Shown here: in pieces, positions 8,058-58,093 of the stretch | How positions within the stretch are numbered: the stretch's first letter is position 1 | Layout: every line of letters begins with the position of its first letter | Sequence record: MH992123.1 | Origin: Escherichia phage OLB145 | Strand: one strand, 5' to 3' | DNA: 64,000 nucleotides | The notes under the pieces: generated by a model | Told to the model about the DNA's origin: nothing | Seen by the model: only the letters and a program-made list of their open reading frames with translations | Databases searched by the model: none | Position numbers and translations under genes: made by a program

Positions 8058-8264
8058 ATGTTTAAGTTCTTAGACCTTATCTGGGCAGTCATTTTGCTGG
8101 TTGCTACAGGCTTTGTATATGGCTTCTTGCTCCCATCAATGATGTCTGCTTTAGACAGCATCATTGTTGTTATGGGCTTGATAGTCTGTATTGTGTGGCC
8201 TCTTATCGTAGGCCGTATCGTTTATCTTACAGTTAAGAAAAGGATGAGAAGAAAGCATGTATAA
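8058..8264 (+). CDS. Small integral membrane protein (two predicted TM helices, 68 aa)
   Basis: Track ORF 8022..8264; ATG at 8058 after GGAG; overlaps the start of the SPFH gene by 8 nt. Confidence 0.45.
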   Translation: MFKFLDLIWAVILLVATGFVYGFLLPSMMSALDSIIVVMGLIVCIVWPLIVGRIVYLTVKKRMRRKHV

Positions 8265-9093
8265 GTATATTGCAGTAGCAATTGCAGGGCTAATCATTGC
8301 TCTAAGTTTAACGAGCTGCTATGACCGAGTTGAACCAGGTAATGTAGGTATTATCGTTAACCGTCTCGGTGAAGATAAAGGTGTGGAAAATGAGGTTAAA
8401 GGTGTAGGCCGTTACTGGCTCACTTGGAATGAAGAACTTTATACATTCCCGACCTTTAAGCAGATGAAGACCTATGATGGTCTGTTCTACTTCCAACTGT
8501 CTGATGGTACTCAGATAGGTCACCAGATGGCTATCAGCTATAAAGTGAACCCTACTAAGGTAACTAATATCTTCCAGACGTATCGTAAGGGAGTTAATGA
8601 AATTACCGAGCAGGATTTACGACAACGTATTGCTGATGTACTTAACAGACAGGGTAACTTGATTAACACTGATACCTTTATTGATGGTGGTAAATCTAAG
8701 CTACTGGATAGTGTCACTGACACAATCCGTAAAGAGATGGAACCAGTGGGGATTGATATTATTGCTATCTCCTGGATTGGTGCTCCTGAATACCCTGACA
8801 ACGTTAAACGTGCCATTAATGCCAAAGTAGAAGCTACTCAGAAAACTCTGCAACGTGAGCAAGAGATTCAGCAACGTGTAGCTGAAGCTAATATGGAACG
8901 TGAACAAGCTAAGGGTGTAGCAGATGCTATTCTGATTAAGGCTAAAGCAGAGGCTGACGCTATTCGTTTACGTGGTGAAGCACTCACCGAGAACCCAAAT
9001 GTAATGCAACTGGAAGCCATTAATAAGTGGAATGGTACATTACCTACCACAATGATTCCTGGGGCTACTACACCTTTCGTTAATGTGAAATAA
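8257..9093 (+). CDS. SPFH/band-7 (prohibitin/HflK-like) domain lipoprotein
   Basis: N-terminal signal with LTSC lipobox; VEPGNVGIIVNRLG and a coiled-coil QREQEIQQRVAEANMEREQAKG region typical of SPFH proteins. Confidence 0.65.
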   Translation: MYKYIAVAIAGLIIALSLTSCYDRVEPGNVGIIVNRLGEDKGVENEVKGVGRYWLTWNEELYTFPTFKQMKTYDGLFYFQLSDGTQIGHQMAISYKVNPTKVTNIFQTYRKGVNEITEQDLRQRIADVLNRQGNLINTDTFIDGGKSKLLDSVTDTIRKEMEPVGIDIIAISWIGAPEYPDNVKRAINAKVEATQKTLQREQEIQQRVAEANMEREQAKGVADAILIKAKAEADAIRLRGEALTENPNVMQLEAINKWNGTLPTTMIPGATTPFVNVK

Positions 9094-9099
9094 CTAAGC

Positions 9100-9130
9100 A
9101 AACCCACCATTACGGTGGGTTTATTTTTTT
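9100..9130 (+). terminator. Rho-independent terminator
   Basis: AAACCCACC-ATTA-CGGTGGGTTT hairpin then T7. Confidence 0.6.
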
Positions 9131-9156
9131 GAAGTTATCTAACACTGGGTATTCCT

Positions 9157-9381
9157 ATGAAAGTAAATGTTTTACGTCGTAAGAAAGTTCCTTTCTTTCA
9201 AATCAATTGTGGTTCATGTTTTCAACACGATGATGACTACTATATGAAGTGTAGTTATCAATCTAAAGAACACTTCTACGGTGTGAATTTACAAACAGGG
9301 CATCTGTTCACATTTGATAATAATGACTTTGTTTATCCTGTGACTTTAGAAGCATGTATTCCTGACCCGCTTAATAAATAG
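9157..9381 (+). CDS. Hypothetical protein (74 aa)
   Basis: ATG ORF, weak RBS. Confidence 0.4.
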   Translation: MKVNVLRRKKVPFFQINCGSCFQHDDDYYMKCSYQSKEHFYGVNLQTGHLFTFDNNDFVYPVTLEACIPDPLNK

Positions 9382-9382
9382 T

Positions 9383-9739
9383 ATGGCTCAAGAAAAGAAT
9401 CGTCGTCAGACACTTATCGAACGTATTCAGGCCAGAATCAAATTACAGGACTTAGGCTATACCGTTAATGGTCAGCCTAGTCTCTGTCACATCTGGACTG
9501 GTTCACATTCAGGTAATGGACGTGGTGGGCAATATGGCAGGATTTCCGTGAATGGAGTTACCTCTGCAACTCACATTATTGCCTATACCCATTATCATGG
9601 TTATATCCCCAATAAGATGCAAGTAGACCATCTCTGTAATAACCGTCTGTGCTGTAACCCTGAACATCTTGAATTGGTTACTCACCAAGAGAACCAGAGA
9701 AGAAGGGCTAAGCGTTCTAAATCTAAAGGAAATAAATAA
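9383..9739 (+). CDS. HNH endonuclease (homing-endonuclease-like)
   Basis: H..H...DHLCNNRLCCNPEHLE..HQEN signature of HNH nucleases. Confidence 0.7.
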   Translation: MAQEKNRRQTLIERIQARIKLQDLGYTVNGQPSLCHIWTGSHSGNGRGGQYGRISVNGVTSATHIIAYTHYHGYIPNKMQVDHLCNNRLCCNPEHLELVTHQENQRRRAKRSKSKGNK

Positions 9740-15436: not shown

Positions 15437-15461
15437 TTAATAATTTACTGGAGAAAATTCG

Positions 15462-17987
15462 ATGCAAGTAGCTGACTCTACTGAACTGACCACATCAGCA
15501 ACGTTGGGTGCTCAAGATGCTATGGCCTTCGGTATTTCTGAAGACCCAGCATTCTTCCAAATACTCAGTGCTAACCTCTATTCTAATCAGAAACTGGCAA
15601 TGGTGCGTGAGACATTGTGCAATAGCTGGGATGCTCATATTGAGGGGAATAAAACAGATATTCCTATCCATGTAACCATTGATAAAGATGGTTTCCTTAT
15701 CTTCCGTGACTATGGTTCTGGTATTCCTAAAGATAAGATTCAAGAGGTCTATGGGGTATATGGTGCATCTACCAAGAAAGCTAATACTGCTTCCACTGGT
15801 GGCTTTGGCTTAGGATGTAAATCCCCTATGGCCTATACAGACAGTTTTACTGTCACATCTATGTGTGACGGAACCAAGACTGTCTATCACATTGCTAAAT
15901 CTTCTGTTGAGACTAACGGTAAACCAGGGATTATTCCTATCGTTAGCGTACCTACTGAAGAATCTGGGCTTGAAGTTAAAATTCAGCTTCAGTCAGAAGA
16001 TATTTTAGAAATTGATTCATATATTCGAGCCATTGTATTACATGGTGAGATTAAATGTATTTACTACAATCAGTATACAGGACCAAATACAGTAGAATTA
16101 CTGCCTGTACTGGGTATGTCTTTTGAACCAGGTAGCTATACCCTAGACCATAGCACATGGCATAAATATTACATGGGCAGTCATTCAATATTTATCCGTT
16201 ATGGTAATGTTATGTACCCTGCTTTGGATACTCCTGCTACGCATGAAGCATTAAAACTGGTTAAACAGTTTATGCAGGTTATTAACTGTAGCCGTATCGT
16301 TGTTCAAGCTGCCCCATCATCACTAGCTGTAGCACCTAGCCGTGAAACACTGTCATCTCAAAAAATGACCGAAGACGGTATCGTAAATTTAGCTGTAGCT
16401 TTAGTAGATAAAATGGAAGCAGATATTAAAGCTCGTCTTCCAAATGCTATTGAATATATTGGGAAGGCTATTAAAGAATATAGTCCTCACCGTTTTGAAG
16501 TAAATAGTTATTTGCCTTACACCAATTTAGTGCCTGATGTTATTGTCAGTCGTTATATGTCTTCTACTTTATTCAGTAAGCAATATGCTCATCTGTGTAA
16601 GAAATGGGGAAATATGGAAATTGACCGTCAACTAGAACATCCTGCACTGGCTCATTTCTCTGGTTCTCAAAAAGCCCATCTCCGTAAGCATTTAAAGAGG
16701 GCTAAGGATTTACGTAATTACAGGGAATTAACTAAAGTATTTACTGATATGGCTATTAAGCCAATGTTCAAAACCTTTGCTAAATTGGGGATTACTAAAG
16801 GTATTTCCCTATTTCATTATCAATATGGTGTTGAACTGTGGCGTAATAATATTGTTAATAGTGTCCGTAGAATACACTCATTAAACTTCATGACTTATAG
16901 TTCTAAGAAGTGCCGTGTATTTGTTACCCCACGTATTACCAATATTGAAGATAGTCTGGCTGGGTATCCAGAGTTTGATAATCTTTCTACTGAGACACTG
17001 GTGAAATATAACTCAATCATTGTCAAAGTTGGAACCAAGAAAGGTGAAGCAGAAGCTATGACTAATCTGCTCACTAAAGCAGGATACGAAGTCATTAATA
17101 TGGCTGAATATCATGAGTGGGATTGTATAGCTCGCAGACGTAAAGAGGAACAAGAGGCTAAATTAGCCATTTCCAAATTACAAGCTAAGAAGGCTACTAA
17201 TAAGAAAAAGGTTAGTCCTAATCGTCTTATTAGTATGAATATCCTTGAAATACCAAAAGAGCATCGTAGCTATTCAAGTGAGGTATGTGGTTCTCACTAC
17301 GCTTCTCGTTCTCATGACCGAATGGTTGATGTAGATACTCCCCAGTATTACATCATGCAGGAAGATATTAATAACTACACAGGAAGGCTTGGTGTTCTTT
17401 CTATGTGGCAATTAACCCCTGCTACCATTAAAGCTGTAACTGTTGTTTGTCGTAATAAAATTGAACGTAATAAAGCTATTAAGCGAGGTGCTGTTCATTT
17501 GGATGAATGGACTGCTCCGTATATTGCTTCAGTTCTTACATCCAAACAATTCATTAAGTATGTCACTAAAGAACGTCAGAAAACGTTAAGTGATATTGGT
17601 ATTTACTCCAAACACCTCAGATTACTGAGAGAACTGGATATTACATATGCCCCATTGAAAGGTCTGCGTTATGACCCAGAACTGGAGAATGCTTATCTCT
17701 TCTTACAAAGTAGTAGCTACCCTAAGCTACGTGCATTGTTAGGGAAGGGTCTGATTACTGAAGAAGAGTATCACTTCCTCAGTGATGTTGATGTGCATTG
17801 CAAGACTTTCAGTAAGTACTCGGAACTTCGTAGGATACCGAAGATGTTCCTTGATATTGATGCTGGGGGTTATATGTTGGCTGCATGTACTGTAGACACA
17901 TTGCTTCGTGAAATCGAACAATTTCCTGAATCAATCCCTGCAATCAAATTGCTTGTAAAAGCTGCTCTTAAACGGAATACAGACTGA
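15462..17987 (+). CDS. rIIA: rIIA-like protein (GHKL ATPase N-terminus)
   Basis: N-terminus closely resembles T4 rIIA as recalled (FFQILSANLYSNQKLAMVRETLCNSWDAH, GGFGLGCKSPMAYTDSFTVTS). Confidence 0.8.
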   Translation: MQVADSTELTTSATLGAQDAMAFGISEDPAFFQILSANLYSNQKLAMVRETLCNSWDAHIEGNKTDIPIHVTIDKDGFLIFRDYGSGIPKDKIQEVYGVYGASTKKANTASTGGFGLGCKSPMAYTDSFTVTSMCDGTKTVYHIAKSSVETNGKPGIIPIVSVPTEESGLEVKIQLQSEDILEIDSYIRAIVLHGEIKCIYYNQYTGPNTVELLPVLGMSFEPGSYTLDHSTWHKYYMGSHSIFIRYGNVMYPALDTPATHEALKLVKQFMQVINCSRIVVQAAPSSLAVAPSRETLSSQKMTEDGIVNLAVALVDKMEADIKARLPNAIEYIGKAIKEYSPHRFEVNSYLPYTNLVPDVIVSRYMSSTLFSKQYAHLCKKWGNMEIDRQLEHPALAHFSGSQKAHLRKHLKRAKDLRNYRELTKVFTDMAIKPMFKTFAKLGITKGISLFHYQYGVELWRNNIVNSVRRIHSLNFMTYSSKKCRVFVTPRITNIEDSLAGYPEFDNLSTETLVKYNSIIVKVGTKKGEAEAMTNLLTKAGYEVINMAEYHEWDCIARRRKEEQEAKLAISKLQAKKATNKKKVSPNRLISMNILEIPKEHRSYSSEVCGSHYASRSHDRMVDVDTPQYYIMQEDINNYTGRLGVLSMWQLTPATIKAVTVVCRNKIERNKAIKRGAVHLDEWTAPYIASVLTSKQFIKYVTKERQKTLSDIGIYSKHLRLLRELDITYAPLKGLRYDPELENAYLFLQSSSYPKLRALLGKGLITEEEYHFLSDVDVHCKTFSKYSELRRIPKMFLDIDAGGYMLAACTVDTLLREIEQFPESIPAIKLLVKAALKRNTD

Positions 17988-54696: not shown

Positions 54697-57539
<2,843 letters not shown>

Positions 57540-58093
57540 TCCATCCTGTAGTGTACTCAGGCATATTAAGAGATAAATAGTAGTTTAACTGTTTACCATC
57601 CAGAGACTTCAAAATGAGCTTACAGGCTTCTACTTTGCCTCGTTTATTCTGAAGGCTTTTATATGCACTTAGAGTTCCAGAACCGACTTTACCATCAACT
57701 TGTATTTTAGGGTAGTCTTTGCCATTTCTGGAGAAAGCATTAAGAGATTCTTGTAACCAACGAGATGGTCTTGCAGGTCCAGTATTAACACCAGCATCTA
57801 CTAGTTTTTCTGTTACCGCTGGTGATACATCTGCAAACTTAACAAAGCCAGGCTTCAAGATGTAATCGTTGTAATAAATACTTGATGCCATTTCCTGAGT
57901 TAAGTTCTTCATTGAACCATCCCAGTTATACATCGACTCTAGTTCTTGCTTATGCTTTTGAGCAACCTGAATAGTTACACCATGATTAGTTTCACCTCCT
58001 GGGTCTTTGGGGTCATTAACGTATCCGCCCTCAACAGCAAATACAGCAGCAATGATTGCTGCAATAACCCCTCCAACACCACCAACTTTCTTC

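Follow-up and report, generated by a model that had tools for sequence, protein, structure and literature searches.

The closest described counterparts of the locus considered here are membrane scaffolds of the SPFH (Band-7) family. HflK and HflC of Escherichia coli cage FtsH, and PHB1 and PHB2, the prohibitins, form a cage in the mitochondrial inner membrane of eukaryotes. Prohibitin-2 and HflK face the non-cytoplasmic side of their membranes and partner FtsH-family proteases. In a second arrangement, that of the SPFH–NfeD operons, an SPFH gene is accompanied by a gene for a small membrane protein, as in QmcA–YbbJ of E. coli (8z5g) and PH1511/PH1510 of Pyrococcus. In phages, a pair of genes for a small membrane protein and an SPFH protein, mbpV and mbpS, has been described in Kayvirus (Staphylococcus phage K), with its function left open (PMC7150955). 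Other phage genome papers mention an SPFH gene, speculate on lysogeny or DNA entry and call its role unclear (PMC8540360, PMC4936722, PMC13239085); according to the last of these, from 2026, the reason why phages carry such a gene 'remains unclear'. Here, we analyse a stretch of 64 000 nucleotides of Escherichia phage OLB145 (sequence record MH992123.1; referred to as the window), in which positions 8058–9093 of the + strand encode a small membrane protein, gp19, and an SPFH lipoprotein, gp20. We establish the family, the fold and the lipobox of gp20, the coupling of the two genes and their conserved linkage. In this pair, the known theme of an SPFH protein plus partner is varied by a phage-specific partner that is not NfeD, a predicted lipid anchor and a putative extracytoplasmic orientation.

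The window comes from an N4-type coliphage: over positions 7600–9400 the identity is 99.8% with Escherichia phage vB_EcoP_3HA13 and 98.2% with phage N4, and positions 8058–9093 are exactly N4 gp19 (68 residues) and gp20 (278 residues). gp19 extends from the ATG at 8058 to 8264 and gp20 from 8257 to 9093, both on the + strand. A GGAG ribosome-binding site, read from the sequence, is found at 8049–8052, 6 nt 5′ of the gp19 ATG. The two genes share 8 nt (ATGTATAA, 8257–8264, +), and because the start codon of gp20 lies inside the end of gp19 this layout implies translational coupling. Neither gene is new, as both are already annotated in GenBank and RefSeq; the RefSeq names are 'membrane protein' for gp19 and 'lipoprotein' for gp20.

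gp20 matches the Pfam family PF01145 (Band_7) over residues 24–210 (8326–8886, +) with E = 1.7e-23 and a score of 84 bits, against a cut-off of 23.6 bits, and has the lipobox L-T-S-C at Cys21. The original prediction, which was made from the letters of the sequence, had placed both reading frames exactly where they are, had called the second of them an SPFH protein with a lipobox and had proposed this profile search as a check; all of this is borne out. In PHROGs, gp20 falls into phrog_200, annotated 'lipoprotein' (E = 6.8e-95). The AlphaFold2 (AF2) model of gp20, with a mean predicted local distance difference test score (pLDDT) of 78.5, has two β-rich SPFH subdomains, a single long helix of ∼65 residues (residues 181–245; 8797–8991, +) and a low-confidence tail. 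According to Foldseek, this model is similar, along almost all of its length, to every solved cage-forming SPFH protein, with a probability of 1.0 and 13–18% identity. The matches comprise prohibitin (8rrh), HflK/C (7vhq and 7wi3), erlin, stomatin and QmcA (8z5g), with 245–300 aligned columns, as well as flotillin and the major vault protein, and the best of them is prohibitin 8rrh_B (E = 7e-14). By sequence profile, prohibitin-2 (E = 2e-4, over the coiled-coil helix) and HflK (E = 3e-3) are the closest among the solved relatives. Judging from the model, the helix formed by residues 181–245 corresponds to the coiled-coil helix that forms the wall of the prohibitin and HflK/C cages. It is followed by a C-terminal segment (9025–9090, +) with the motifs K-W-N-G-x-L-P (9025–9045) and P-F-V-x-V-K, which is conserved from the crAss-like phages to N4 and in which Trp258, Gly260, Pro263, Pro273 and Phe274 are invariant.

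gp20 shares with HflK and HflC the Band_7 domain, the order of the parts (N-terminal anchor, SPFH1/2, long helix and C-terminal segment) and a predicted position at the inner membrane that faces the periplasm. It differs from them in that the identity in structural alignments is 16–17% and in that gp20, which like them is predicted to be exported, has a lipobox anchor in N4 where they have a transmembrane helix. Furthermore, the phage has one SPFH gene rather than two paralogues, plus the separate 68-residue hairpin partner. Among the NCBIfam models only TIGR01932 (hflC) was found, below its threshold (19.6 bits, with an equivalog cut-off of 134.4 bits), and on this score gp20 was rejected as an HflC orthologue. 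The prohibitins, which are the best match both in Foldseek and by sequence profile, face a compartment that is topologically equivalent to the periplasm. They differ from the phage pair in being eukaryotic, with two paralogues in a hetero-oligomer, a transmembrane anchor, no small partner gene and ∼18% identity to gp20.

The small partner, gp19, has two hydrophobic stretches and a C-terminal tail with a charge of +6 (KKRMRRKHV). Its AF2 model (mean pLDDT of 80) consists of two helices, residues 2–29 and 34–67, with a four-residue turn between them. gp19 is thus predicted to be a helical hairpin in the inner membrane with an N-in/C-in topology, in which the turn Ser30-Ala-Leu-Asp33 is periplasmic and the basic tail is cytoplasmic; that both ends should be cytoplasmic and only the turn periplasmic follows from the positive-inside rule. 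In PHROGs it matches phrog_1130 (E = 2.7e-20), the annotation of which is merely 'membrane protein', and Ser30 and Gly40 of the family are nearly invariant across lineages. Apart from one sub-threshold match to a transmembrane segment, gp19 has no match in Pfam, and none of the holin families in Pfam or PHROGs matches it. As a class II holin or pinholin gp19 was rejected, although the shape fits: there is no holin-family match, and the lysis cassette with the holin gp62 is ∼49 kb away.

The original prediction had described gp19 as an overlapping two-helix reading frame and had likened it to NfeD. The former is a real gene and a conserved partner of the SPFH gene, as its phrog_1130 relatives and the adjacency of the two genes in other lineages show. 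The latter does not stand: gp19 has no match to PF01957, and it is not NfeD-like because the two transmembrane helices of the AF2 model take up all 68 residues and leave no space for an OB-fold domain. The gp19 gene does adjoin a co-oriented SPFH gene, as NfeD genes do, but the OB-fold by which NfeD proteins are recognized is missing, and on these grounds an assignment to NfeD was ruled out. The phage pair resembles the SPFH–NfeD operons of E. coli and Pyrococcus in having an SPFH gene and a gene for a small membrane protein in one operon, and QmcA is a significant structural match of gp20. It differs from them in the partner, which has no OB-fold domain and belongs to a phage-specific family, and in the SPFH protein, which is predicted to be exported, whereas QmcA faces the cytoplasm.

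In the N-terminus of gp20, MYKYIAVAIAGLIIALSLTS-C21, a basic n-region and a hydrophobic core precede the lipobox. The signal peptide and the lipobox are encoded by 8257–8319 (+), and the residues MYKYIAVAIAGLIIALS-LTS-C21 satisfy the lipobox pattern [LVI][ASTVI][GAS]C; Cys21 (TGC, 8317–8319) is predicted to be lipidated and to start the mature protein. The first SPFH strand (YDRVEPGNVG) comes directly after Cys21, with no linker or tether. We surveyed the lipobox in the 120 closest gp20 clusters. The Cys is kept in 107 of these, and the two residues after it are Y-E (51 clusters), D-R (49), Y-Q (three), Y-D (two, N4 included), W-Q (one) and E-R (one). In the remaining clusters a Tyr replaces the Cys in 12, the fusion protein P0074 among them; the others with this replacement (GY-DRVEPG for GC-DRVEPG) are P0081, P0082, P0084, P0085, P0088, P0089, P0091, P0100, P0104, P0109 and P0120. 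The Tyr form is that of the SSU5-like phage-plasmid copies (e.g. 6001–6831 of fetched locus L004) and of some others, and P0088 alone is found on 175 contigs. Judging from their sequences, these Cys-less variants could not be lipidated, and their signal helix would probably be retained to anchor them in the membrane. The versions from phages of Gram-positive bacteria have a transmembrane helix as the anchor and the SPFH domain outside the cell.

In E. coli, an Asp directly after the lipobox Cys is the classical signal for retention in the inner membrane (the '+2 rule'). We infer that gp20 is located on the inner membrane and faces the periplasm, because Asp is found at this position in 49 of the 120 clusters and the Cys-less and transmembrane-anchored versions fit the cytoplasmic membrane only, and also because a protein that has no tether would have to be at the inner membrane itself to reach the short periplasmic turn of a hairpin embedded there. 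In P0074 (347 residues, eight member sequences), a gp19-like hairpin protein and the SPFH lipoprotein are fused in frame, which could reflect a natural fusion of the genes or a frameshift that recurs where they overlap. The topology of the fusion is self-consistent (two membrane helices, a signal helix and then the exported domain) and fits the inner-membrane model.

The linkage of the gp19 family to SPFH genes is conserved in other phages. Searches with the single gp19 sequence gave just 2–5 relatives, or 22 phage records, and a profile was required; the profile search gave 118 gp19-like proteins. Matches to phrog_1130 are found 5′ of the SPFH gene in SSU5-like phage-plasmids, PolA/Enc34-type prophages, an Stx2a phage, the jumbo phage 7t3 and Klebsiella phage BIS47, and the open reading frame (ORF) at this position in Pseudomonas phage Ostro gives a weaker match. 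In all, phrog_1130 or related matches occur in at least seven unrelated phage backbones. The Rhizobium, Burkholderia and crAss-like versions have the same layout and a loop motif that is approximately P-x-[LM]-[IV]-S-x-x-[DN]-[ST]. In 96 of 103 loci, fetched via gp20 relatives or phage records, an ORF of the gp19 family abuts the SPFH gene, and in other lineages the genes overlap by 1 to 11 nt or are separated by 2–3 nt. Among 21 lineages, 17 have a membrane-protein gene immediately upstream of the SPFH gene, and six of 20 have one downstream of it (Fisher p = 0.0016). The reverse look-up, starting from gp19 relatives, gave a Band_7 gene directly downstream in five of the six loci examined; in the sixth (2001–3187 of fetched locus L113, from an Ostro-type Pseudomonas prophage) a Tn3-family resolvase/transposase is inserted where the SPFH gene should start. 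On these sequence comparisons, the partner family phrog_1130 is distinct from NfeD, phage-specific and tightly linked to the SPFH gene. The Kayvirus genes are likewise an abutting pair, and MbpS is homologous to gp20 (30% identity, E = 3e-15). However, MbpS is transmembrane-anchored (the host is Gram-positive), the pair is inside the lysis region and MbpV, which belongs to phrog_3667, has one transmembrane helix and a cytoplasmic coiled coil.

Relatives of gp20 were found by tblastn in 702 of 50,697 phage records (∼1.4%). The phages concerned are N4-like phages, Vequintavirinae, jumbo phages, Stx-converting phages, phages of Pseudomonas, Burkholderia, Rhizobium and Caulobacter, crAss-like phages and Staphylococcus phages (Kayvirus). 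Copies with 62–65% identity are found in otherwise unrelated enterobacterial prophages and in phage-plasmids of ∼110 kb. Of 5426 complete E. coli genomes, 536 (∼10%) carry the Stx-type pair; the Citrobacter-type prophage pair gave no match to E. coli genomes with megablast. Because it is scattered over unrelated phages, prophages, phage-plasmids and E. coli genomes, the gp19–gp20 module is, to judge by its sequence relatives, an accessory one that is exchanged horizontally among phages with common hosts.

In N4 the pair is located in the early/middle block on the + strand, and the lysis cassette (gp60–gp63) is ∼49 kb away on the other strand. In prophages and phage-plasmids the pair is found among replication genes. 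The N4 endolysin gp61 (window positions ∼57461–58087, − strand; 15461–16087 of fetched locus L122) starts with VAISKKKVGGVGGVIAAIIAAVFAVEGG, a Gly/Ala-rich N-terminal helix like that of signal-arrest-release (SAR) endolysins, which suggests that it is Sec-exported and membrane-tethered. N4 also has homologues of rIIA and rIIB, gp33 and gp34. Four crAss-like contigs (L114, L117, L118 and L120; 65–99 kb) have a fixed gene order of two-helix protein, SPFH lipoprotein, multi-transmembrane protein and glucosaminidase. The multi-transmembrane protein has 91–121 residues (with about three hydrophobic segments in the one that was scored) and the glucosaminidase has an N-terminal transmembrane helix; the SPFH module in these phages is thus contiguous with what, by sequence, looks like a lysis cassette.

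We consider the chances to be evenly balanced that the two proteins together make up an extracytoplasmic SPFH scaffold, which the phage places in the host inner membrane before the late phase of infection. gp20 would be exported, lipidated at Cys21 and kept at the periplasmic face of the inner membrane, where, with no linker behind Cys21, the SPFH domain would rest on the bilayer itself. Through the 65-residue helix and the KWNGxLP/PFV tail it would oligomerise into a ring or cage that fences a patch of membrane, like prohibitin and HflK/C. Translational coupling would provide gp19 in matched amounts, as a membrane-embedded hairpin at the foot of, or inside, the gp20 ring; it would take the role that the transmembrane helix of the SPFH protein itself, or the NfeD partner, has in cellular systems. 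The short conserved turn of gp19, the sole part of it that would reach the periplasm, is a possible contact with gp20. The early/middle block in N4 and the replication-gene context in temperate elements suggest that the pair is installed before the late functions. The effect that we favour is the control of inner-membrane clients; both the prohibitin/HflK clade and the non-cytoplasmic orientation suggest an FtsH-type protease as the precedent. More generally, the pair might instead keep the membrane intact and energised until programmed lysis. In this scheme we infer the location of the pair, the oligomerisation, the contact between the two proteins and the client.

Several observations weigh against this interpretation. 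The FtsH idea is by analogy alone, and the NCBIfam HflC model gives gp20 19.6 bits when 134.4 are needed. The residue at +2 in N4 gp20 itself is Tyr and not Asp (+2/+3 Y-D), which makes its sorting ambiguous, and an HflK/C-like protein encoded by a Pasteurella multocida prophage, which is possibly related to gp20, was reported in outer-membrane vesicles (PMC9872710). The C-terminal ∼30 residues of gp20 have low confidence in the AF2 monomer model (pLDDT of ∼50); this may be what is expected if the segment folds only within an oligomer. Four of the 21 lineages lack a membrane-protein gene immediately upstream of the SPFH gene, and in phiCbK-like phages, Kayvirus and Bruynoghevirus the upstream membrane protein belongs to other families, with no detectable homology to gp19. 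Our search of the literature gave no functional or phenotype data on N4 gp19 or gp20. The same search found no phage-wide screen that covers the two genes; the phage transposon-mutagenesis preprints include neither N4 nor an SPFH gene.

Lysis timing and superinfection exclusion are two other explanations. A scaffold of this kind on the periplasmic face could restrain a SAR endolysin or a holin, prevent its early release and so add to the very late lysis of N4. This is in keeping with the SAR-like helix at the start of gp61, with the endolysin of Stx2_95, which is likewise SAR-like, with the crAss-like module directly upstream of the multi-transmembrane protein and the glucosaminidase with its transmembrane helix, and with the position of mbpV/mbpS in Kayvirus between lysK and the gene for the Sec-secreted lytic enzyme Tgl, for which the authors propose a link to Tgl export (PMC7150955). 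We nevertheless regard a role in lysis timing as unlikely: the N4 pair is ∼49 kb from the lysis cassette, on the opposite strand and in an earlier expression block, and in most lineages the module is found among genes of replication or nucleotide metabolism. An exported endolysin (SAR or signal peptide) accompanies the module in N4, Stx2_95, the crAss-like phages and Kayvirus, but Pseudomonas phage Ostro has the module and a soluble endolysin; given how common SAR endolysins are in general, the association does not reach significance in this sample. Superinfection exclusion, in our view distinctly unlikely, could take the form of an entry block at the inner membrane, like that of T4 Imm and Sp, or of a receptor-masking outer-membrane lipoprotein, like T5 Llp and Cor. 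These four are small phage envelope proteins, some of them lipoproteins, that are made early in infection; they are small monomeric blockers and not SPFH scaffolds, and have no kinship in sequence or fold with gp19 and gp20. The pair adjoins gp18, which matches PF17420 (E = 1e-55), and is an accessory mobile envelope cassette, as is typical of competition genes. The outer-membrane form would be permitted by the Tyr at +2 in N4 gp20 and would agree with the possibly related vesicle protein reported for the P. multocida prophage (PMC9872710). However, terminators are found between gp18 and the pair, gp18 does not accompany the pair in other lineages and the prophage copies are inside a lytic early operon, not in a position that is expressed in the lysogen. 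The module also occurs in phages with very different receptors and hosts, Gram-positive ones included. Further objections to an outer-membrane lipoprotein are that half of the close homologues have Asp at +2, that some variants lack the Cys or are anchored by a transmembrane helix and that the linked inner-membrane hairpin exposes just ∼4–9 residues to the periplasm.

Two further explanations were considered. Stomatin regulates ion channels, and if gp19 forms a holin-like or toxic pore, gp20 might by the same token be its stomatin-like gate. In size and shape, gp19 resembles a class II holin (68 residues, two transmembrane helices and a highly basic C-terminus), and MbpV, its counterpart in Kayvirus, is said to 'resemble holins' (PMC7150955). 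Such a channel with its regulator is very improbable given that gp19 matches no holin family in Pfam or PHROGs, that the N4 lysis cassette already has an annotated holin, gp62, and that making a pore-former ahead of the late phase would be detrimental. We give hardly any credence to the idea that the pair has no role in lytic growth, whether as a selfish passenger or as a lysogenic-conversion or virulence lipoprotein that acts on the animal host (for example as an agonist of Toll-like receptor 2, TLR2). The HflK/C-like protein from the P. multocida prophage island activates TLR1/2 and contributes to virulence (PMC9872710), and the pair is scattered sporadically within phage genera (PMC8540360). 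Against this, phages that are strictly lytic and infect soil, gut, marine and plant bacteria conserve the two genes as a coupled pair, with strong purifying patterns, and the pair is located in lytic operons.

Terminator-like hairpins are present on both sides of the pair, which the original prediction had taken for a self-contained unit flanked by terminators. The upstream one (8024–8046, +; hairpin 8024–8040) is GCCCTCC-ATA-GGAGGGC followed by T6, with a stem of 7 bp, a folding energy of −13.6 kcal/mol and z = −2.75, and the downstream one (9100–9130, +; hairpin 9100–9122) is followed by a T-run and has a stem of 9 bp, −14.3 kcal/mol and z = −4.2. Both resemble intrinsic terminators, and the vB_Eco_Jura record gives the sites on both sides as terminators. 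The upstream hairpin is either the end of the gp18 unit or part of the 5′ leader of the gp19–gp20 mRNA; ∼12 nt separate its T-run from the gp19 ATG, the ribosome-binding site included. We found no sigma-70-like promoter in 7984–8057, with a scan that is unable to recognise N4 middle promoters, and in the region as a whole such a scan gave fewer sites than in shuffled sequence. A moron has its own promoter and its own terminator; here the terminators were seen and a promoter was not identified by the sigma-70 scan. A strong hairpin with a T-run is also found 3′ of each of gp16, gp17 and gp18, as it is of gp20 (6681–6706, 7621–7639, 8024–8040 and 9100–9122, respectively, all +), and the 5 kb region has 11 terminator-like sites where 2.8 are expected. 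The bracketing by hairpins is therefore a trait of the whole region and not of gp19–gp20 alone. The self-contained unit of the original prediction is thus half borne out: the hairpins exist, but no promoter was found and each neighbouring gene comes with hairpins of the same kind. As the intergenic spaces are too short for obvious promoters, the hairpins of the region may act as partial terminators, or may serve in the stabilisation or processing of N4 middle transcripts.

Directly 5′ of the pair, gp18 (7669–7983, +) is a single gene between two hairpin terminators of its own; its family, PF17420, is that of 'superinfection exclusion gene product 17' (P22 gp17-like), and it also falls into phrog_1510. 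On the other side, gp22 (9383–9739, +) starts 2 nt past the end of gp21 and encodes a free-standing HNH homing-type endonuclease (PF13392, E = 9e-20), which is a pseudogene in the vB_Eco_Jura record; it points to mobile-element traffic next door to gp19–gp20. None of gp18, gp19, gp20 and gp21 matches a PADLOC defence profile.

The annotation of the homologues in public records is uneven. gp20 homologues are labelled 'SPFH domain-containing protein' in other records and 'prohibitin family protein' in some phage records, and several are wrongly labelled 'serine protease'. We rejected the last label, as Pfam finds no protease domain in gp20; it looks like a carry-over from the names 'membrane protease subunit' and 'regulator of protease activity HflC'. 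In several public records the SPFH protein is mislabelled 'serine protease', 'ion transporter' or 'transposase fusion protein'. The small membrane ORF 5′ of the SPFH gene is unannotated in Stx2a phage Stx2_95 (L098 2256–2444), crAss phage cr128_1 (L101 1254–1457), PhiCrAssBcn1 (L107 939–1154), Burkholderia phage vB_E264 (L103 1304–1453) and Mesorhizobium phage Cp1R7A-A1 (L112 802–957), where the coordinates are those within the fetched loci. The SPFH coding sequence of Pseudomonas phage Clew-1 (L095 1950–2780) is annotated ∼35 codons too short: a signal peptide and a lipobox (ITAGC) are in frame 5′ of the annotated ATG, and a non-ATG start would be needed. In vB_PaS-HSN4 (L106 1099–2097) the C-terminal end of the SPFH protein is unrelated, which suggests a frameshift.

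To what was described for other phages, the present analysis adds a conserved two-gene unit, a partner family that is separate from NfeD and an SPFH domain that probably faces outwards, like those of HflK/C and prohibitin. Bacterial SPFH proteins are widespread yet poorly understood, and the phage pair is common and conserved. N4 grows on E. coli K-12 and is tractable, so that the effect of a minimal SPFH scaffold on a bacterial membrane could be learned from it, and it could also reveal whether phages act through gp19–gp20 on FtsH, on lysis timing or on exclusion. A broader reading, which we put forward as doubtful but worth stating, is that gp19–gp20 is the prototype of a phage-specific two-component SPFH system with an exported SPFH cage and a dedicated mini-hairpin in the place of NfeD, found in phages of Proteobacteria and Bacteroidota and with analogous pairs in phages of Firmicutes. 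Such a system would take over a universal inner-membrane function, by caging FtsH or another quality-control or secretion machine or by restraining exported lysis proteins. If this is true, the pair would represent a general and previously unrecognised step of host takeover, present in ∼1.4% of sequenced phages and in ∼10% of complete E. coli genomes.

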